Source: Acidobacteriota bacterium (GTDB lineage: Bacteria; Acidobacteriota; UBA6911; RPQK01; JAJDTT01). Taken from it: a stretch of DNA of 64,000 nucleotides. Under the pieces are notes generated by a model. It had not been told where the DNA came from. It saw only the letters and a list, made by a program, of their open reading frames with translations, and did no database searches. Where the stretch lies: assembly GCA_965217775.1 (NCBI GenBank), contig CBDCJH010000001.1, positions 64,001 to 128,000 of the forward strand, read 5' to 3'. Shown here one piece after another: positions 1,234 to 63,778 of the stretch. The position numbers and the translations under genes are program-made. Each line of letters begins with the position of its first letter. Positions within the stretch are counted from its first letter, which is position 1.

Positions 1234-1969
1234 TCTAACCTCCTTGAGGAAACCGTACCATTAGTTACCGTATCTATGACTTCGATCATGCCGAGTGAGT
1301 TGCTGAATTCAAGATAAAGTGCCTTACAGGAAATAATCCCACATATCGTCATGCTCTAAGTTGGCCGCCACTTCTGTGCATATCTCAAGTGAACTTTCCC
1401 TGTAACTAAGGACGCAACTTTTTTTAAACGAGAATGCGGAATGTTACAACTTAGTACGTGCCTTTTTAGTCCCCATTTCTCATCACCGAAACGGAAGTCG
1501 GTGCGTTTAACGGCATTTCAATGGTTTTCTTATTCATATGAATTCAAGTGCCGTCTTGCCGACTCGAATGTGGCGACAAAAGCCAAGATCGGGCGATGTC
1601 CAGAGGCATTTGACGTCCCACCTGCGTTCATGAGCCAGATTTCTCAAAGAGCCGACTCCAGCGCAGAGTCCGTCCGGCGCGGCGGACTCCCAAGGTGGCG
1701 TCTTCCCATTCGCTGTTTCCCGTCAACAGCGAACCTGGAGGGATTGCCCTCGCGCCAGAACCGATCACAAACACGAATTGCTAGCCCTGGTTTCACGAGC
1801 CGAAGCGGCTCCTGGCGGCTCACAAGTCTATCACCTGATGTTCAAATACCTATGACGTTTGGGAAACGAGAACCGGACAGTTTCCCCGAAAAAATTGAGG
1901 AGAGGCGCGATAGCCGTAGGTCCGAGGGAGTCGCTGTTGGCGGCGGCCTTCGCCGCTATGCTGGCGCCT

Positions 1970-2071
1970 CGATCTCCCTTCCTGCTTGCCGTGTAGCGGA
2001 TCGTTCGTGGCGTCCACGTTCAGGATCATGTACGCGGGCGGCGCTTGGTGCGCTTCCAGGAACACCTCCAC
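1970..2071 (-). pseudogene. IS1380-family transposase internal fragment
   Basis: VFLEAHQAPPAYMILNVDATNDPLHGKQEGR resembles the IS1380 motif LDxDATDDPxHGxQEG. Only about 34 codons are present. Confidence 0.7.
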
Positions 2072-2316
2072 CGGTCGGAACCAGAGAGAAGGGGACAGTC
2101 ACGTTTTCTGCATGCGATTCGCCAGGACCGAAAAGGGGACAGTCACATTCTCTGCTGTCGCTACTGGGGAGCTCCAGACTCGACTTCCACCGAGCCGCTC
2201 TTCGCCTGGAGACCCAAGAGGAGGATCGAAGCCCTATTGGCCGTTTCGACCTTGACCGAAGAGGAGAAGGAGACAGTCTATTTGTCGCGCGCCGTTGTCC
2301 TTGGTACGGTAGCGTA

Positions 2317-2760
2317 TCAGGTTAGTCCAGACGTAAACGATTGGGTGACCAGGCCCTTGGCCGCGTCTATCCCACCCTCCTTGATCAGGCGAGCAAGAAT
2401 CTTTCCAAAAGTCTCGTCGGGTTGCTGGACGCCATCGGGAATGGAGTTGAGTAGCTTCAGCGCCTTCTCGGTCAACATGCAGCCGTTGACCTGTAGTCCT
2501 CCACGCTGGAGAGCCCGAACGTACTCATTCTCTACGAGCCAATCGATCGTCGAAAAGGCGATCCGCATCTGCTTCTGCTTCTCCTCGTCCACATCCTCTG
2601 AGTCGTCCTTGCGAGAGTAAAAGATGTCACCGTATCCTTTGGGGCGAGTGTCACCGCTGATTTCCCACGCCATAAGATCTTGTCTGACCGGAAAGTTCTC
2701 ATAGAGGCGGCCCAAAATGATGGCGACGTATTCGTTGAACAGGTCGATGTTCTGCGTCAT
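2317..2760 (-). CDS. Hypothetical protein (147 aa)
   Basis: ATG with GGGAGG RBS and protein-like composition (MTQNIDLFNEYVAIILGRLYENFPV). Confidence 0.75.
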   Translation of the reverse strand: MTQNIDLFNEYVAIILGRLYENFPVRQDLMAWEISGDTRPKGYGDIFYSRKDDSEDVDEEKQKQMRIAFSTIDWLVENEYVRALQRGGLQVNGCMLTEKALKLLNSIPDGVQQPDETFGKILARLIKEGGIDAAKGLVTQSFTSGLT

Positions 2761-2853
2761 GCGTCCTCCCCGTAATGGCTGAGTTGGAGCCGAAACTCCA
2801 CTTTACGAGGTGTTCCCACTCGGAGAGAAGGGGACAGTCACGTTTTCTGCATG

Positions 2854-3090
2854 CGCGGCGAGGGCCAAGGCAGTGGCGCCCTCACCGTTCTGGGCGTCGA
2901 TCCGGGCCCTGCGGTCCAGCAGCAATTCCGCGACTTCAGCATGACCGTTCGAGGCGGCTTGCATCAGGGGGGTCCGACCATCGTCGTCCCGAACATCCGG
3001 GTCCGCCCCCCGGTCCAGCAGCAGCTTGGCGATCTCCGGGAATCCCTGATACGCCGCGAAGGCGAGAGCCGTCTGGCCTCCCGCGCCTCG
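2854..3090 (-). pseudogene. Diverged partial copy of the ankyrin gene (matches 4582-4818)
   Basis: 237-bp ungapped alignment with about 22 mismatches by eye, bounded by junction motifs at 2830 and 3112. Confidence 0.9.
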
Positions 3091-3383
3091 GGTTCCCACG
3101 GGACGCGAGAAGGGGACAGTCTATTTTTCCCGCCCTCGGTTCCAACTGCGCCCACCACTGGACCCTTGCCTGCCAGGTCGATTATCTGGTCACGGACCCT
3201 CTACGCGAGAGGGGACCAGATTAGGGACCGCTTGGAGAGGTTGGCGAGGGTGCCTTTCTTGACGTGGCTCTTAGGGCGGTAGGACTTGCTCAGGAGGGGC
3301 CGGAGAGAAGGGGGCAGTCACGTTTTCCGCCCCTCGTTCGATGTCAGGAGGATGGCGGGGGGGGGGGGGGGGGCGCAGACCGG

Positions 3384-3605
3384 CTACTCCTGCTCCTGGA
3401 GCAATCTGGCCAGCGCAAGAAGGGGACAATCTATTTTTCCCATGATGACGTGTGAAACGTACCGTCTTCCCGCCAATACGCCAGCCCATGCGCCGACGGC
3501 CGCAGAGCCTATGGCGAGAAGGGCCTCATTCTCTTTCTCGTAGAATGCCAACAGCACGGAACCCAGCACAGATAGAACAATGGCCGTGCCCAGCGATATT
3601 GCCAC
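3384..3605 (-). pseudogene. Chimeric small membrane-protein ORF fused through a junction motif to a copy of the ankyrin gene's 3' end
   Basis: Two hydrophobic segments, then motif-encoded GKIDCPLL, then ARLLQEQE-stop, identical to the C-terminus of the 4435-6318 protein. Confidence 0.55.
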
Positions 3606-3703
3606 GACTCGATAAAAGAACTGGTACGATTCATAGGTGGGGGGTGGAACCTATCGCAATTGCAGAATTCCCACTATCGCCCCAATCCTGGGGAGCGGGG
3701 GTT

Positions 3704-3925
3704 TCAGCCACCTCTCAGCCCCATAATGACAAGACGCTCCATCGAACCGTCCTTCTTGCGTCTGTACAATTCTCCACCGTCTTCGACCAACCTGGTCAGA
3801 TCGTCCATCACCGACAATGCGCTACTCACAGTTGATGCTTTGCTTCGCGAGTCCAATTTTTGCGTCAGCCTGTTGGTGATTTCGATATCGCGCTCGGTCA
3901 GATTCATGGTGACTTTTCGTAACAC
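3704..3925 (-). CDS. Small protein, possibly ribbon-helix-helix DNA-binding
   Basis: GGAGG RBS. KVTMNLTE beta-strand pattern followed by SKASTVSSAL helix. Confidence 0.6.
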   Translation of the reverse strand: MLRKVTMNLTERDIEITNRLTQKLDSRSKASTVSSALSVMDDLTRLVEDGGELYRRKKDGSMERLVIMGLRGG

Positions 3926-4195
3926 GTGTGCCTCCTATGTGGTTGCAGATTCCAACCATGCTTCGTTCTGGATGCGCATTGTGCCGCCAAGTCGAGGGAC
4001 GTCGAGAGGCCAACCCTGGATCCATCCACCTTTTCAGTCGATGCCAAAGCCCATTCAGCAGCATCTTCAACACTTAACGAGTACTAGAACACATACAGAC
4101 AATGTATGGCGAATATACAGATAAAGTATGGTCATAGTCAAGGTCAAGGGGGGTCGGAACAGGGGACAGTTCCCTTTTCACGAGGTGTGGGTCCG

Positions 4196-4290
4196 TTTTT
4201 GTTGTTCCGGTTCCCGGTGGTGTTCCTGTTGCGGTTCGCGGAGCGCAGGTTCCTGGGGTTGTTGTTCCAGGAGCCGCCGCGAAAAACGCG
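4196..4290 (-). repeat. Diversity-generating retroelement template repeat (TR), CLec/FGE-sulfatase type, 3'-truncated and orphan in this window
   Basis: Reads RVFRGGSWNNNPRNLRSANRNRNTTGNRNN, with every Asn encoded by AAC (10 codons). Confidence 0.85.
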
Positions 4291-4434
4291 CTGGGGGGAC
4301 GGTCAGGCCTCTGGACGGGGCCGAAGTGCACCTCCCGGAAGATCGCCTCGAGGGGACAGTCACGTTTTCCGCAGAGAGAAGGGAACCGCGCAGAGAGAAG
4401 GGAACCGGATTCGCGCGTGCGGCCCAGACGGCTT

Positions 4435-6318
4435 CTACTCCTGTTCCTGGAGTAATCTCGCCGTGACCTTTCGACCTTCGGCCTGAGCCAGCATGAGGGG
4501 ATTGCTTCCCTGGTGGTTCCGGATACGCACGTCAGCGCCGCGGCTCAGCAACAGCCGGGCCAGGTCCGTCTGACCTCGGGACGCGGCGAGGGCCAAGGCA
4601 GTGGCGCCCTCTCCGTCCTGGGCATCGATCCGGGCCCCCCGGTCCAGTAGCAGTTCCGCCACTTCAGCATGACCGTTCCAGGCGGCTTGCATCAGTGGGG
4701 TCCGGCCGGAATCGTCTTGGACATCCGGGTCCGCCCCCCGGTCCAGCAGCAGCTTGGCGATCTCCGGAAATCCCTGATACGCCGCGAAGGTGAGGGCCGT
4801 CTGGCCCCCCGCGCCTCGCGCTCCGACACGAGCGCCGCGTTGCAACAGTTTCCGCACCGACTCGATTCGCCCCCTGTAGGCCGCCATGCCCAGAAAAGAC
4901 TGGCCGCGGGGGGCGAGCGAATTCACGTCCACACCCGCCGCCAACAGGGCGTCGACGATGGGACCGCGGTCCTGGCTCAGCGCCAGCCCCAGGGCCGTCC
5001 AGCCCTCGTTGCTGCGAGAGTCGAGCCGGGCGCCGCCGTCGATGAGCCGCCGCGCCACTTCGGCGTGACCATGGAGGGCGGCGTAGATGAGCGGCGTCCT
5101 CCCCTCCCGGTCCGGCCGGTCCGGATCGGTCCCCCGGGCCAGCAGGACCTTGACCGTCGCCTCGTTTCCTTCCAACGCGGCGTGCACCAGAAGGGTTCGA
5201 CCCGCCTCGTCGGGGGTATCGACCCGTTCCCCGGCCGGGAGCAGCGCTTCGATGACCTTCGTGTGGTCGTACCAGACGGCCAGGTCCAGAGCCGTCTGGC
5301 CCCGATTGGACTTGATCTGCGGATCCGCGCCCGCCGCCAGAAGCGCCTTGACCGCATCCGCCTTCCCCTGGGAGGCGGCCTGCGTGAGAGGTGTCCGGCC
5401 TTGACTGTCGCGGCTGTCCACCACGGCCCCCGCCCGGATCAGAGCCTCGACGATGGGTGCAAAGCCATTGTAGGCCGCCGCCGCCAGTGGTCCGTTGCCC
5501 TCCTTGTCCCGAAAGCCGGTGGCGGCGCCGTGGGCCAGCAGGAATCGGGCCGCTTCGGTCTTCCCTCCCGACGCCGCATGCATCAGGAGCGGGATGCCGT
5601 TGACGTCCACCTCATCGACGTCGGCTCCGTAGCGCACCAGGAGAGCAGCCGTTCGTCCGTGGCCCTCGAACAGGGCCAAGGCGAGAGCCGTCCAGTTGTC
5701 GCGGCTCCGAGTCCCGACCTTGGATCCTCCTTCGAGCAGAGCCTCGACCACAGGCAGGTCGCCCTGGGACGATGCCCGCATCAGGACGGTCCAGCCCGTC
5801 TTGTCTCGCGCGTCGGGTCCGGCCCCGGCCGCCAACAGTGTCCGGACCACCGCCACGCTCCCTCCCAGTACTCCCCAGACCAAGGGCGTATGTCCGCTGG
5901 CGTCGGTGGAGCGTATGTCCGCTCCCACCTCCAGCAAGGCGCCAACGACAGCCACATGTCCGGATCCGGAACCGATCATCAGGGCGGTGGCGCCGTCCCG
6001 GGTTCTGGCTTCCAGTTCCGACCCCCGGGACAGGAGCAGGCGGACGGTCTGTTCATTCCCGCCCATGGCGGCGTACATGAGAGGATTCAATCCGTCCGGA
6101 TCCCGAACCAACACGCTGGCGCCCCGGTCCAACAAGGCCGCGACCTGATCGGTGCGGCCCTCCACGGCGGCCCCGATCAGGGCCGCATTGAGCTCCTGAT
6201 CCTGACCGGCGGCGGAGACGTTGGACGACAGAAGACCCAGAACCAACCACCGGGCGAGGAAGTCCCGGCCCCGCGGTTTCGGCCTTGGCCGCACTTGATA
6301 TCCGGTGGCTCGGAACAT
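4435..6318 (-). CDS. Secreted ankyrin-repeat protein (about 17 repeats)
   Basis: Repeated GxTPLxxAAxxG...LL..GA units and an N-terminal signal-like sequence. Confidence 0.95.
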   Translation of the reverse strand: MFRATGYQVRPRPKPRGRDFLARWLVLGLLSSNVSAAGQDQELNAALIGAAVEGRTDQVAALLDRGASVLVRDPDGLNPLMYAAMGGNEQTVRLLLSRGSELEARTRDGATALMIGSGSGHVAVVGALLEVGADIRSTDASGHTPLVWGVLGGSVAVVRTLLAAGAGPDARDKTGWTVLMRASSQGDLPVVEALLEGGSKVGTRSRDNWTALALALFEGHGRTAALLVRYGADVDEVDVNGIPLLMHAASGGKTEAARFLLAHGAATGFRDKEGNGPLAAAAYNGFAPIVEALIRAGAVVDSRDSQGRTPLTQAASQGKADAVKALLAAGADPQIKSNRGQTALDLAVWYDHTKVIEALLPAGERVDTPDEAGRTLLVHAALEGNEATVKVLLARGTDPDRPDREGRTPLIYAALHGHAEVARRLIDGGARLDSRSNEGWTALGLALSQDRGPIVDALLAAGVDVNSLAPRGQSFLGMAAYRGRIESVRKLLQRGARVGARGAGGQTALTFAAYQGFPEIAKLLLDRGADPDVQDDSGRTPLMQAAWNGHAEVAELLLDRGARIDAQDGEGATALALAASRGQTDLARLLLSRGADVRIRNHQGSNPLMLAQAEGRKVTARLLQEQE

Positions 6319-58710: not shown

Positions 58711-58769
58711 TTCGAGCTAGCGCCCCCGCGAGAAGGGGACAGTCACTTGCTTTCCCGTCCGACGCCTTG

Positions 58770-58905
58770 TCGCACGCCTTGCACGTCCTCCCGATTGCGA
58801 GCGGCCATCAATATTCCCCGCTCCTCCACCCATTCGAACCGCCGCAACCCGAAGCGAGAACGGATCCTGTGCACGTGCGACGCCACTGTAGAGGGGTCCC
58901 CAGGA
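58770..58905 (-). pseudogene. IS1634-like transposase fragment
   Basis: GDPSTVASHVHRIRSRFGLRRFEWVEERGIL..ARNRED resembles DPxTV..QV..L..RFGL..V..VGDRGM..SARI.ED. Confidence 0.6.
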
Positions 58906-59126
58906 TCGTTGTTCAAGGCTGAACTGTAAAGGATGTCCTGACACCAAACAGCCAACGCATCACCCCCGAGTCGGCACGCCAACCCAAAGCCGGCGCCAAT
59001 GGCGACGATGCCATCGGGGAGGCCCCGGCCCAGGCTGTCGCGCTCGTTCGTTACAACGTTCAGCGGAAGTGCCTTGATCACATCACGGGAGAAGATATAT
59101 TTCGTAGATCCAAAAGGAGACTGTCC

Positions 59127-59366
59127 ATGGGTGCGACATCGCAGATCTGCAAGTGGGGGTCCAGCCTGGCCGTCCGTATCCCCAAGCCCATCGCCGAGCA
59201 GTGGGGGGTGCGTGAGGGCTCCGCCGTCGAGATGGTCTTGCGCGGCAACGAAGTCTTGCTGCGCAAGAAAACCGACAGCTTGGCCGACATGCTGGCGACT
59301 GTGACGGACGAGAATCTGCATCCCGAGGTGGACTCTGGGCCCGCCCAAGGCAATGAGGCATGGTAA
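59127..59366 (+). CDS. mazE: MazE/AbrB antitoxin
   Basis: KWGSSLAVRIPK, ENLHPEVD.G...GNE.W. Confidence 0.93.
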   Translation: MGATSQICKWGSSLAVRIPKPIAEQWGVREGSAVEMVLRGNEVLLRKKTDSLADMLATVTDENLHPEVDSGPAQGNEAW

Positions 59367-59713
59367 AAAGGTCCTACGTCCCCGGAAACGGGGAAATCGT
59401 GTGGCGGACCTTCAATCCTCAATCCGGCCATGAACAAGCCGGACGCCGCCCGGCCCTGGCGCTGAGCCCGAGAAGCTACAATCGGAAAACCAGCCTCGCC
59501 CTGTTCTGTCCCATCACCTCCCGAGCCAAGGGCTATCCCTTCGAGGTCTCCCTTCCTGCCGCCGACGCCGTCACCGGGGTCGTTCTGGCCGACCAGATCA
59601 AGAACCTGGATTGGCGGGCCAGACGGGTCCGTTTCGAATCGAAGGCGCCGCCCCGGGTGGTGAGCAAAGTTTTTGAGAAGTTGGCTGTTCTATTGGATCA
59701 AAAGGAATCCTGA
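59360..59713 (+). CDS. mazF: MazF endoribonuclease toxin
   Basis: FNPQSGHEQAGRRPAL, CPITS, GYPFEV, LADQIK.LDWRAR. Confidence 0.94.
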   Translation: MVKRSYVPGNGEIVWRTFNPQSGHEQAGRRPALALSPRSYNRKTSLALFCPITSRAKGYPFEVSLPAADAVTGVVLADQIKNLDWRARRVRFESKAPPRVVSKVFEKLAVLLDQKES

Positions 59714-59839
59714 GCCGCACCGTGAACGGAAGCTAATCGAATTGACAGAGCGGAACCGAGAAGGGGACAGTCACTTACTTTCACGATGGCCGTCTCCCCG
59801 AAACGCCCTGGAACCGAGAGGGGGACAGTTACTTTCTTT

Positions 59840-59900
59840 CCCTCCCGATGAAAAGCCTCGCCAACTCGCCGGGCAGGTTTTCATCGAGTCTTAGTCGCAT
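59840..59900 (-). pseudogene. DUF5615 PIN-like toxin, 5' stub
   Basis: MRLRLDENLPGELARLF, cut at the junction motif at 59821. Directly downstream of DUF433. Confidence 0.7.
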
Positions 59901-59912
59901 GGGGAGTCTCTA

Positions 59913-62556
<2,644 letters not shown>

Positions 62557-62734
62557 GGCTTGGCCGTGACAGATATTCGGATCGACGGATATGTACTCAT
62601 CCCAGTCCATAGTCAATTCATCTCCGCGACACGGGTTCATGCTCCCCTTTCGCCTTATCCGCCGTCAACCGCGACCCGTGCGCCATTATGTCGCGGCTAA
62701 GGCCATCGCTCTACGCCTCGCGAGAAGGGGACAG

Positions 62735-63778
62735 TCACTTTCTTTCTCGGTTCGGATTTGTGCCGCGGTTGGCTCGCTCTTGAATGTCGGCACATCTCTC
62801 CATCAGGGATTCGAACCGCTCTTCGTCATCAAGCAACATCCCATCGCCGAGCATTCTGCCGTAGTCGTCAGCCAGGGCTCTATAAAAGGGGCCGTGCGGC
62901 ACCAGTTGCAACTCACCGGACACGGCGGCTTCGTAGTCGATCCAACTCCCTCCGGCGTCCTTTTCCCGGAAGAACGCCGACTTGTGCCGTGCTACCGAAA
63001 GCGCCAAGTTGCGGTCGGTTATTGACTTTGCGGCGACGCCCGCATCGTCCAAGCGGACCAGATCATACCAGTGCCGAGAGAGCCGTTCTCCCCGGCTTCG
63101 CTGCTGGCGGCAGAAGACGTGCACGGCCGTCGCCTTTTCCCAGAAAGTGCGCTCCGCCAGCATGACGAAGGTGCGAGTTGAAGGAAAAGCCACCTCCGAT
63201 ATGTAGGGGGCCGCATCGCACGCTATCGAATGCTCTTTCCGGGGCTCCCCAGTCGAGCGCGCCCCGAACTCCACCATCACTTCGGGTCTCACGAAGCCAT
63301 AGTAGTCTGAGGCCAGCGGCTCATAACCGATGAAGACTCGGTCTCCCTCAGCGTGAACTCGGGCGGAGGGGTCCAAACCCGACAGGTTCGCCTCAATGGC
63401 AGGCAGCGCATGGTCTTCTACCCACACCGCCAGCCGCTTCCTGATTTTCCGCGTCCATCTCTGCTCTTGGCTGCGAGTAGGTGGAAGCGCATCCTCGCCA
63501 CGGCCTGTTACCAGGTCGGGAGCAATGGCCCGGATGTCATAGGTGATGTCAAGGTCTTCCGAGAAACGACGAATGGCATGATACACCTTGGCCAGAGAAA
63601 TGCCTCCCTTGAAGGTTAGATCCCTGCCGAAGGGGCTCTCCGTGAGAGCCCCTAACGTATGCACGACCCATATGTCCTTCTCCAGGAGATGAGCACTCCT
63701 TCCACTCAGGCTGGCCGCCACCCCCAAGACATCCCGCCGGTCCTCGGAAGAAAGCGACTGAAAAGACGTATCAGCCAT
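62735..63778 (-). CDS. AbiEii/AbiGii nucleotidyltransferase toxin (second module)
   Basis: EKDIWV, FKGGISL.K, RFSEDLD, ERTFWEK, SRHWYD. The stop codon lies inside the junction motif. Confidence 0.9.
   Translation of the reverse strand: MADTSFQSLSSEDRRDVLGVAASLSGRSAHLLEKDIWVVHTLGALTESPFGRDLTFKGGISLAKVYHAIRRFSEDLDITYDIRAIAPDLVTGRGEDALPPTRSQEQRWTRKIRKRLAVWVEDHALPAIEANLSGLDPSARVHAEGDRVFIGYEPLASDYYGFVRPEVMVEFGARSTGEPRKEHSIACDAAPYISEVAFPSTRTFVMLAERTFWEKATAVHVFCRQQRSRGERLSRHWYDLVRLDDAGVAAKSITDRNLALSVARHKSAFFREKDAGGSWIDYEAAVSGELQLVPHGPFYRALADDYGRMLGDGMLLDDEERFESLMERCADIQERANRGTNPNRERK

Follow-up and report, generated by a model that had tools for sequence, protein, structure and literature searches.

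A stretch of 64,000 nt from the genome of an Acidobacteriota bacterium (GCA_965217775.1, contig CBDCJH010000001.1, positions 64,001-128,000 of the forward strand), hereafter the window, contains at positions 2085-4410 a cluster of at least nine co-oriented solo copies of a short near-palindromic motif, located in a hypervariable spot beside a conserved ankyrin-repeat gene. To judge from sequence comparison, this motif is very probably the conserved terminal repeat of a multicopy element of the TIRYT type, which comprises a Y1 transposase gene flanked by terminal inverted repeats, and about 200 solo copies of it are distributed over the genome. The copies are clustered, co-oriented and enriched at homology breakpoints, and the DNA between them turns over between related species. 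The reading that we favor, with a probability of about 0.6, is that these solo TIRYT ends are acted upon in trans by the Y1 enzyme and serve, in addition, as substrates of recombination.

The genome (code G000) comprises 6.43 Mb in two contigs, C1 (144 kb), in which the window occupies C1:64001-128000, and C2; C1 is colinear, in the reversed orientation, with C2:5152009-5303614 at 92-97% identity. A mismatch-tolerant scan of both strands with a 15-mer of the motif, GAGAAGGGGACAGTC, yielded 19 matches with up to three mismatches in the window, against 3.48 expected (standard deviation 1.72), and none of 100 shuffles reached 19. On the plus strand of 2085-4410, matches were found at 2086, 2825 and 3107 (no mismatch), at 2130, 2264 and 3305 (one), at 3417 (two) and at 4157 (three). 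Seven copies with at most two mismatches, together with two to three degenerate ones, all on the plus strand, bear out the original prediction, made from the sequence of the window, that at least eight same-strand copies are present; no convincing minus-strand copy was found in this interval, the minus-strand matches at 2138 and 4165 being palindromic shadows of plus-strand copies. The distance from copy to copy in the window ranges from 44 to ~740 nt, leaving spacers of ~13 to 700 bp, and because of this variable spacing the array is not CRISPR-like, as had also been stated. From 4411 to 58729, only four matches with two or three mismatches occur (7602, 10356, 27665 and 46792), which corresponds to the chance level, and the motif reappears, about 55 kb away as noticed earlier, in a second co-oriented cluster. 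The copies and motif-like sequences of the window are listed below, M1 to M9 denoting the copies of the first cluster.

1868-1893, plus strand: degenerate motif-like sequence beginning GAGAACCGGACAGTT, a three-mismatch match that is conserved in the C2 copy.
2084-2116, plus strand: M1, with the 15-mer at 2086-2100 and the right arm ACGTTTTC; the same 33-nt unit recurs without differences at 2823-2855.
2130-2152, plus strand: M2 (GAAAAGGGGACAGTCACATTCTC), from sequence and scan.
2264-2286, plus strand: M3, with the right arm TATTTGTC, which is the type that the transposase elements carry at their 5' end; from sequence and scan.
2823-2855, plus strand: M4, from sequence, scan and BLAST.
3107-3129, plus strand: M5, with the right arm TATTTTTC; from sequence and scan.
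3305-3327, plus strand: M6 (GAGAAGGGGGCAGTCACGTTTTC), from sequence, scan and the C2 alignment.
3417-3439, plus strand: M7 (AAGAAGGGGACAATCTATTTTTC), conserved both in species G005 and in the C2 copy.
4157-4179, plus strand: M8, degenerate (GAACAGGGGACAGTTCCCTTTTC), from sequence and scan.
4347-4369, plus strand: M9, with the core GGGGACAGTC at 4352-4361 and the right arm ACGTTTTC; read from the sequence.
4374-4386 and 4393-4405, plus strand: two tandem orphan left halves, GAGAGAAGGGAAC, lacking the right half; read from the sequence.
58730-62744, plus strand: second co-oriented cluster, with copies at 58730, 59758 and 62722 (no mismatch) and at 59816 (two mismatches).

A Pfam search of the genome returned five Y1_Tnp matches, all of them on C2 and none in the window or elsewhere on C1, in agreement with the earlier observation that the window does not encode the enzyme. 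Three of the five matches correspond to a 311-aa protein, for which tblastn retrieved 11 full-length copies (83-100% amino acid identity) and one 49-aa fragment; ten of the 11 are free of internal stops. In every one of the 11 copies, the motif lies in the orientation of the gene ~270 nt upstream of the ATG, inverted copies, CGGAAAGGGACAGTCTCGATTCC, follow 190-260 nt past the stop codon, and the homology among the copies is delimited by the upstream motif and the downstream inverted copies. The ends of the element are inverted copies of (G/A)AGAAGGGGACAGTC. Y1_Tnp genes flanked by inverted motif copies, for which a search had been proposed, are accordingly present in the genome as 11 full-length genes, each so flanked. 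Because of this arrangement and because the core of the motif, GGGGACAG (GGGG-A-C-A-G), fits the consensus GGGGWSAS, the link to Y1/RAYT genes (RAYT stands for REP-associated tyrosine transposase, where REP means repetitive extragenic palindrome) that the original prediction had drawn is supported; the consensus is reported for many TIRYT repeats in the consulted sections of Di Nocera et al. 2013 (PMC3733652) and is also printed in those of Quentin et al. 2018 (PMC6006769). The whole element occupies C2:5250100-5251760 and is missing at C1:45479; a diverged ~230-bp duplication of the target lies on the far side. Three copies of the element lie within 10 kb at G000:C2:1201932-1211083, one of them with an in-frame TAG.

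The 311-aa protein scores 37.3 bits against the Pfam Y1_Tnp model (cut-off 23). An alignment of 20 homologues shows no variation at the residues H63 and H65 of the HUH motif, at Tyr162 or at Asn166; the tyrosine motif reads Y162-x-E-L-N166-A167, with alanine in the place where proline is expected in all 20 sequences. The C-terminal half is conserved in the same 20 homologues, Y1_Tnp being the only Pfam family matched at E<=0.01, and its structural model is of low confidence. In a Foldseek search, the AlphaFold model is matched best by 4er8_A, the REP-associated tyrosine transposase of E. coli (E 2e-3, probability 1.00); the IS200, IS608 and ISDra2 transposases come next. Database searches recovered 554 relatives at E<=1e-5, some of which are named RayT by one source, and the full-length relatives with 52-58% identity come from Acidobacteriota.

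Co-occurrence of the motif with the gene was examined in 31 genomes of the order, including that of the window and nine of its genus in all; these genomes are kin and the counts are not independent. All ten genomes in which the motif has 29 or more copies (up to one mismatch) possess a homologue at least 79% identical to the 311-aa protein, and these ten are the nine genomes of the window's genus and G023, from another family. The ten genomes with no homologue at E<=1e-20 contain 0-3 motif copies, like the reversed-pattern control. In a sister genus, where the homologues are 44-54% identical, the variant GACAGAC is found. Within the window's genus, the gene has 4-11 matches per single-contig genome. 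The genome G023 (3.4 Mb) harbors the identical 15-mer 77 times, for the most part in dense stacks of one direction at C1:1.42-1.49 Mb of that genome (L016-L019). The arrays of G023 consist of a few types of 120-200-nt units, motif first, joined head to tail, with many internally deleted copies, and the 79% identical transposase gene is located inside the same region.

In the genome of the window, the scan returned 49 exact copies, 129 with up to one mismatch and 225 with up to two, or 211 after removal of double hits of palindromic copies. Alignment of the copies delineates the unit as a ~23-nt near-palindrome, GAGAAGGGGAC-A-GTCACCTTCTC, in which the left arm and the core are nearly invariant and the right arm falls into subtypes common to a cluster. 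According to our own open reading frame (ORF) calls, which cover 87% of the genome, 191 of the 225 copies are intergenic, two touch the edge of a gene and 32 lie within an ORF. Linking of copies at distances of up to 6 kb gives 77 groups, 24 of which have at least four copies, and neighboring copies are on the same rather than on opposite strands in 62 vs 11 cases (up to 1 kb) and in 108 vs 26 cases (up to 6 kb), regardless of the strand of the genes between them. The genome-wide scan proposed earlier thus finds the motif clustered, co-oriented and, as detailed below, enriched at breakpoints. GC skew on C2 places the origin near 5.01 Mb and the terminus near 1.70 Mb, and by replichore the motif strand is distributed as 29 plus/29 minus and 48 plus/82 minus, the imbalance being driven by clusters. 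A bias of insertion toward the lagging strand was considered as the source of co-orientation and is rejected on these counts; since the motif strand does not follow the replichores, the local co-orientation is not an effect of replication direction. Rather, it reflects local propagation.

Possible traces of breakage surround individual copies. Of the 129 copies, 13 have, within 60 nt upstream, an orphan left half, defined as AAGGGGA that CAGT does not follow, vs one copy downstream and ~0.8 expected from the frequency in the genome as a whole. Eight of the 13 upstream orphans stop exactly at GGGGAC, after which the upstream flank is repeated, and the two half sites at 4374-4405 of the window belong to this type. 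Such footprints fit repeated breakage between C and A at the center of the palindrome followed by faulty resynthesis, and suggest GAC^AGTC as the probable break site. Of the earlier proposal that a trans-acting enzyme cuts and joins next to the motif, the trans-acting enzyme is supported, Y1 genes being present elsewhere in the genome, while the cutting and joining is hypothetical and the footprints point to the center of the motif and not to a position beside it. It was also considered whether the right arm travels with the cargo. This is unsupported, for one array has a single subtype for all its cargo, and a block common to two arrays carries the local subtype at each of them.

Taken together, these patterns are compatible with the following scheme, in which we infer catalysis by the Y1 protein, the site of the nick and a single-stranded intermediate. 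The transposase, made elsewhere in the genome, would act on the near-palindromes as single-stranded hairpins and would nick them, probably near the center of the motif (GAC^AGTC). At or near the copies, DNA would repeatedly be broken, copied locally and rejoined, and these events, along with recombination between co-oriented copies, would then duplicate, delete and re-order the intervening DNA. In the window, the outcome would be a patchwork of whole small genes, ankyrin pieces, a template copy of a diversity-generating retroelement (DGR) and a scrap of an insertion sequence (IS).

Turnover of motif-bounded DNA is best seen in an island at C2:2108000-2127000 (L020), which is located between conserved flanks in eight of eight related species. 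It contains 13, 3, 3, 12, 8, 5, 5 and 7 copies of the motif in the individual species (counted with a 13-mer, up to two mismatches), all 56 on one strand and of one right-arm subtype. Block X, a 1350-bp segment encoding a GFO_IDH_MocA oxidoreductase, is present in all eight species at 88-95% identity. It extends from motif to motif in G002, in G007 and in G000, where it occurs twice, the two copies being 91% identical. In G004 its ends fall short of the bounding motifs by ~45 nt and 20 nt, and in G001, G003, G005 and G006 one end or both lack an immediately adjacent motif, the motif being displaced, degenerate or absent. Block Y (769 bp) encodes a TumE-type toxin with a helix-turn-helix (HTH) partner; it comes after X in G004 and before X in G000, G002, G003 and G007. 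The island also has several blocks that occur in one species only. In a BLAST comparison of the whole island, which avoids the bias introduced by cutting at motifs, 24 of 126 distinct breakpoints fall within 40 nt of a motif, vs 4.9 expected. No tyrosine recombinase was found beside the examined arrays: the 26 PF00589 matches are all on C2, and just a 65-aa fragment lies inside L020.

The patchwork of the window itself was dissected by BLAST of positions 1500-4700 against the whole genome. Its pieces and the intact gene next to it are as follows.

1471-2070: decayed DDE-transposase (IS) remnant, in the pieces 1471-1893, 1897-1977 and 1977-2070; recurs in the genome and in relatives.
2317-2760, minus strand: complete 147-aa ORF that matches no Pfam family.
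2854-3099, minus strand: ankyrin-repeat fragment, ~90% identical to 4582-4827 of the intact neighbor.
3214-3297: part of a different dispersed repeat, of which relatives have many copies at 80-82%; stops 8 nt before M6.
3380-3411, minus strand: 32-nt copy of the ankyrin gene's 3' end, matching 4435-4466; stops 6 nt before M7.
3704-3925, minus strand: 73-aa ORF with no Pfam match at E<=0.01.
4193-4346, minus strand: orphan copy of a DGR template repeat, with M8 14 nt away and M9 directly adjacent.
4435-6318, minus strand: intact 627-aa ankyrin-repeat gene, where synteny conserved in eight of eight species of the genus begins.

Nine of the 17 distinct homology ends are located within 16 nt of a motif copy (2070, 2263, 2854, 3099, 3297, 3311, 3411, 4193 and 4346), in accordance with the earlier statement that many copies mark a switch between unrelated sequences; the other eight (1505/1545, 1763, 1897/1903, 1977, 2560, 3214, 3380 and 4435) are away from it. 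Most of the pieces named in the original prediction were recovered, namely the complete 147-aa gene, the two ankyrin pieces, which keep the orientation of the intact gene with their order swapped, and the DGR template repeat, as a template-repeat-like copy. The 73-aa ORF, described there as a small regulator, could not be confirmed as such; two small ORFs of the region have no family assignment. As for the transposase scrap, the ORF at 1850-2071 on the minus strand gives a weak match to Pfam DDE_Tnp_1_4 (24.5 bits, under the cut-off of 34.7), and the name IS1380 is an assumption.

The IS remnant stops 16 nt short of the first motif copy. Fragments of the IS family represented by 1471-1763 abut the motif also at C1:25652-25716, C2:1813581-1813697, C2:5279084-5279106, C2:2122561-2122578 and C2:5226809-5226820. 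The IS is cut internally in four of these five loci, and the cut point differs between matching C1 and C2 loci, which suggests deletions starting at the motif. Targeting of the motif by this IS family with one fixed end is unsupported, because the motif abuts various internal positions of the IS, as expected from truncation.

The DGR copy, 153 nt long, is 94% identical to C1:60858-61010, and its homology to this sequence ends exactly at the start of M9, while the original has no motif beside it. The DGR itself is located just upstream of the window, with the template-repeat-like sequence at C1:60858-61010 and the variable-repeat-like sequence at C1:62551-62639, the latter differing mostly at A positions (14 of 18 differences), and corresponding sequences occur at C2:5234552 and C2:5232938. 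At the right edge of the array, the two orphan left halves at 4374-4405 are fused to the last ~30 nt that remain of a gene which four related species have intact at this place.

Comparison with C2 and with the relatives shows how variable the locus is. The colinear chain of C1 and C2 contains 25 gaps, the large non-IS replacements all hold motif copies, and 13 of the 16 motif copies of C1 fall in the 13.1% of C1 that is unaligned to its C2 counterpart. The region of the window cluster aligns piecewise with C2:5224704-5226809, where the 147-aa gene is severed at the position equivalent to 2558 (GAAAAGG) and fused to the counterpart of M6. In eight of eight species, synteny with the window begins at 4422-4446. 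Beyond this point, G001, G002, G003 and G006 have a conserved gene directly after the ankyrin gene and no motif, G005 and G007 carry different motif-bearing inserts, G004 has unrelated sequence, and the contig of G008 ends there. The content of the locus thus varies among relatives, and the copies are not randomly spread. The second cluster of the window, the copies of which separate a Fic gene, a MazE/MazF pair, a Tn5-like IS and an AbiEii gene, is also located in a segment structurally unlike the C2 copy. The IS in this cluster encodes a 783-aa Tn5-like DDE transposase (60145-62496, minus strand), the N-terminal part of which matches the Druantia DruA family (E 7.8e-32), and three further copies of this 2.47-kb IS are found on C2.

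The junctions were checked against four sequencing runs of one study, which contained 55-72% of the sampled words of 1800-4500; in a further run the share was 0.05. Read-derived contigs span 2087-2369, 2682-2852, 3067-3330, 3382-3517 and 4252-4432 with no differences, that is, M1-M3, M4, M5-M6, M7 and M9; assembly chimerism is therefore unlikely there. At 3626 and at five further places, every contig of the four runs departs from the window, which indicates that they represent a close relative or a further copy and not the exact sequence. The C2-type joint 2558->3301 is found in all four runs at similar depth. The C1 and C2 forms have similar depth in the four runs; C1 is either a large segmental duplication or a co-assembled sister strain. 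Two joints missing from the assembly were also seen, 3129->3548 (418 nt, with eight unmatched letters, in four of four runs) and 2108->3380 (1271 nt, in two of four); their motif-side matches are just 23-27 letters long, and they are not counted as evidence of ongoing rearrangement. A run of ~19 G at 3357-3375, where the C2 copy is mixed and G-rich, may be a sequencing-prone homopolymer or a slippage tract.

Three dispersed families were encountered alongside the motif. A second palindrome, GGGGACAAGAATGTCCCC, is present in 54 copies (up to two mismatches, one orientation; e.g. C1:45367, C2:3906895 and C2:1536238); it carries the GGGGACA core and lies mostly far from the main motif and from transposase genes. 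Although seen near two transposase elements, it proved to be a separate dispersed family. An element of ~160 bp is present in more than 100 copies at 93-100% identity (e.g. G000:C2:1183971-1184128) and is unrelated to the motif, and a further dispersed element of ~150 bp was noticed alongside it.

A number of observations weigh against action of the Y1 enzyme on the solo ends. On the side of the breakpoints, 102 of the 126 in the island are away from the motif, blocks common to different arrays can start 3-100 nt off the motif, and of the duplicated segments in arrays, which usually start 3' of the motif, one starts ~39 nt beyond it. On the side of the motif, each array has one right-arm subtype whatever the cargo, covariation between the arms is no higher than with shuffled partners, which neither supports nor excludes a hairpin, and duplications of the right arm occur downstream of 5 of the 129 copies, the upstream control (5) being contaminated by tandem full copies, so that no claim is made from this count. 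As to the protein, the AlphaFold model is of middling confidence (pLDDT 69.7), no Foldseek match reaches E<=0.001, phmmer against PDB sequences returns nothing at E<=0.01, and the NCBIfam model of the REP-associated tyrosine transposase, NF047646, is not reached (50.7 bits, cut-off 80). Finally, the four runs come from one study and may represent close kin of the sequenced strain, and the consulted sections of the TIRYT and RAYT group 1 literature report no demonstrated activity or role.

Much of the pattern could also arise if the motifs were passive repeats, seeded once by the transposase or otherwise, with homologous or microhomology recombination of the host and replication slippage between repeats of 23-33 nt doing the rest and the Y1 enzyme playing no further role. 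Co-oriented direct repeats are a substrate for deletion and unequal crossing-over, and the arrangements X..Y-X (G000), X-Y (G004) and Y-X (G002, G003 and G007) are derivable by duplication followed by loss. The truncation in C2 joins GAAAAGG of the gene to GAGAAGG of the motif arm, which amounts to microhomology, many breakpoints are close to the motif and not at it, and a single subtype per array is expected from local duplication or homogenization. However, blocks unique to one species and flanked by copies of the local subtype are left unexplained, as are the one-sided half-motif footprints ending in GGGGAC (13 upstream vs one downstream) and the conservation of the transposase, with ten of 11 copies open and the catalytic residues invariant; furthermore, 23-33 nt is short for efficient RecA-dependent exchange. 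We regard this explanation as the main alternative, a live one although less likely than the favored reading.

Another possibility is a cassette platform resembling an integron, in which Y1 would insert single-stranded or circular cassettes at a resident motif and regenerate the motif on each side, forming directional stores of accessory genes. The island speaks for this, with its constant place in eight of eight species, 3-13 copies of one strand and subtype (56 of 56), variable content and blocks bounded motif to motif, as does a cargo like that of chromosomal integrons (the TumE-type toxin pair, MazEF, AbiEii, Fic and unknown genes) and a motif strand independent of gene strand and replication direction. 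In contrast, no pair of empty and filled sites differing by exactly one motif-bounded block was caught, no promoter or attI-like entry point was identified, no circular or junction form appeared, most breakpoints are away from motifs, and the pieces in the window are gene fragments and not cassettes. In this strict form the proposal is improbable. A looser form, which we consider doubtful, would cast the TIRYT transposase, together with the motif, as an HUH-based second route to integron-like organization, with a nick at GAC^AGTC, joining of foreign or local single-stranded DNA and regeneration of the motif on each side; directional cassette arrays at fixed sites would persist and turn over genus-wide, and the window array would be a worn example with captured fragments of its neighbors and possibly of DGR-derived single-stranded cDNA. 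Directed, integron-like accretion, the outcome put forward in the original prediction, is plausible, with most breakpoints of the island and the starts of some shared blocks lying away from the motif.

Two further explanations have very little to recommend them. The motif could be a functional cis-element (a protein-binding site, a terminator or an RNA hairpin) whose position at breakpoints is incidental, in line with its near-palindromic shape, its mostly intergenic location and the G-T pairs in some variants, which would be tolerable in RNA. But the orientation to flanking genes is unbiased (70 opposite/opposite, 61 same/same, and 31 and 31 mixed), for which reason a promoter or terminator was rejected, no run of T follows the motif in the aligned copies, the copies gather in variable islands instead of being spread over operons, and the motif forms both ends of the transposase element, all of which makes this explanation highly improbable. 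An assembly artefact arising from a short repeat, to which the nature of the window contig as a diverged duplicate of a chromosomal region and the error-prone 19-nt G run might have lent some credit, is extremely unlikely, as read-derived contigs of four runs bridge motif junctions exactly and several junctions recur in the C2 copy and in G005.

Action of the Y1 enzyme on solo TIRYT ends, which we continue to prefer, can be set against several known systems. The arrays resemble integrons and attC clusters in that gene-sized blocks, with many toxin-antitoxin and unknown genes, are separated by co-oriented, site-like repeats that locally are of a single type, and in that an array at a fixed chromosomal place has variable content. 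They differ in that no integrase is encoded beside any examined array, the sites are 23-33 nt long, the genes are in either orientation and many pieces are fragmentary. The attC sites are ~57-141 nt long and have paired R and L boxes (GTTRRRY/RYYYAAC), which the sites described here lack. On Acinetobacter plasmids, short dimeric palindromes, the Xer-type dif-like sites, bound mobile modules of accessory genes; these alternate in orientation and are bound by XerC/XerD, whereas the present sites are co-oriented and tied to a Y1 transposase.

With IS200/IS605 elements, the system shares a Y1/HUH enzyme, and IS200/IS605 ends are recognized as single-stranded DNA hairpins. Both ends of an IS200/IS605 element are on one strand, like two neighboring motif copies in an array. 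The gene described here is, in contrast, bounded by inverted and not by same-strand ends, its product has the motif Y---N and 311 aa instead of Y---Q (class 1) and a ~130-aa core-only protein, and the NCBIfam IS200 model does not match the 311-aa protein. In addition, lagging-strand targeting is reported for IS608 and ISDra2, while the motif strand is independent of replication direction here.

Canonical REP/RAYT systems are closer, with the HUH-Y1 fold (E. coli TnpA-REP, PDB 4ER8, is the best structural match), short extragenic palindromes inverted around the gene and an enzyme proposed to act in trans on dispersed copies. The differences are that the consensus of the 129 aligned copies has no GTAG/GT[AG]G foot, that the copies are not arranged as inverted doublets, and that the gene is multicopy and the whole element present or absent between C2 and C1, compared with the single gene, immobile as a unit, of REP systems.

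The system belongs to the described TIRYT/TIRtron kind. In the consulted sections of the respective papers, Di Nocera et al. 2013 define TIRYTs as RAYT-like genes with terminal inverted repeats, found in "TIRtrons", with solo repeats that are single, paired or grouped, and state that the planctomycete R. baltica has a "plethora" of these genes and repeats (PMC3733652). Quentin et al. 2018 place TIRYTs in subclass 2.1 of TnpA-Y1, long proteins with a C-terminal extension, to which 291 of 292 RAYT group 1 sequences belong; this subclass is reported to have no REP-like partner, and REPtrons appear not to move as units (PMC6006769). According to Bertels et al. 2017, there are 1.3-1.8 copies per replicon across RAYT groups, and group 1 is among the most IS-like, its flanking 16-mers having ~12 occurrences (PMC5581495). 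As far as these sections go, the likeness extends to a long Y1/HUH transposase gene flanked by inverted repeats carrying GGGGWSAS, the fit of the core noted above, solo copies that are single, paired or grouped, and 52-58% identical homologues from Acidobacteriota, a phylum that names one TIRYT group; the C-terminal extension of subclass 2.1 is described as resembling HTH or Bac_DnaA_C domains. Compared with the same sources, the genome described here has 11 full-length gene copies instead of the 1.3-1.8 per replicon given across RAYT groups, ~211 solo copies in co-oriented arrays with locus-specific subtypes, copies that delimit gene-sized blocks turning over between species, and Y---NA in place of the Y---NP of class 2.

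TIRYT/RAYT group 1 proteins are widespread, with 150 species given in the consulted part of PMC5581495 and 554 homologues of the 311-aa protein recovered here, and the genus of the window offers a system with a multicopy, apparently mobile gene, an abundant end-repeat and repeats bordering turnover blocks at syntenic sites in eight species. This makes it testable whether Y1 enzymes cut and join at the repeats and whether an HUH enzyme can organize accessory genes in a cassette-like manner with no integron integrase; for annotation, short co-oriented GGGGACAGTC repeats can flag rearrangement-prone islands with toxin-antitoxin and defense-type genes. Three features go beyond what the consulted parts of the TIRYT literature, the supplements of which may list similar arrays, and the literature searches revealed: an apparently mobile gene in multiple copies, arrays that are both co-oriented and subtype-specific, and genus-wide turnover of motif-bounded blocks at syntenic sites.

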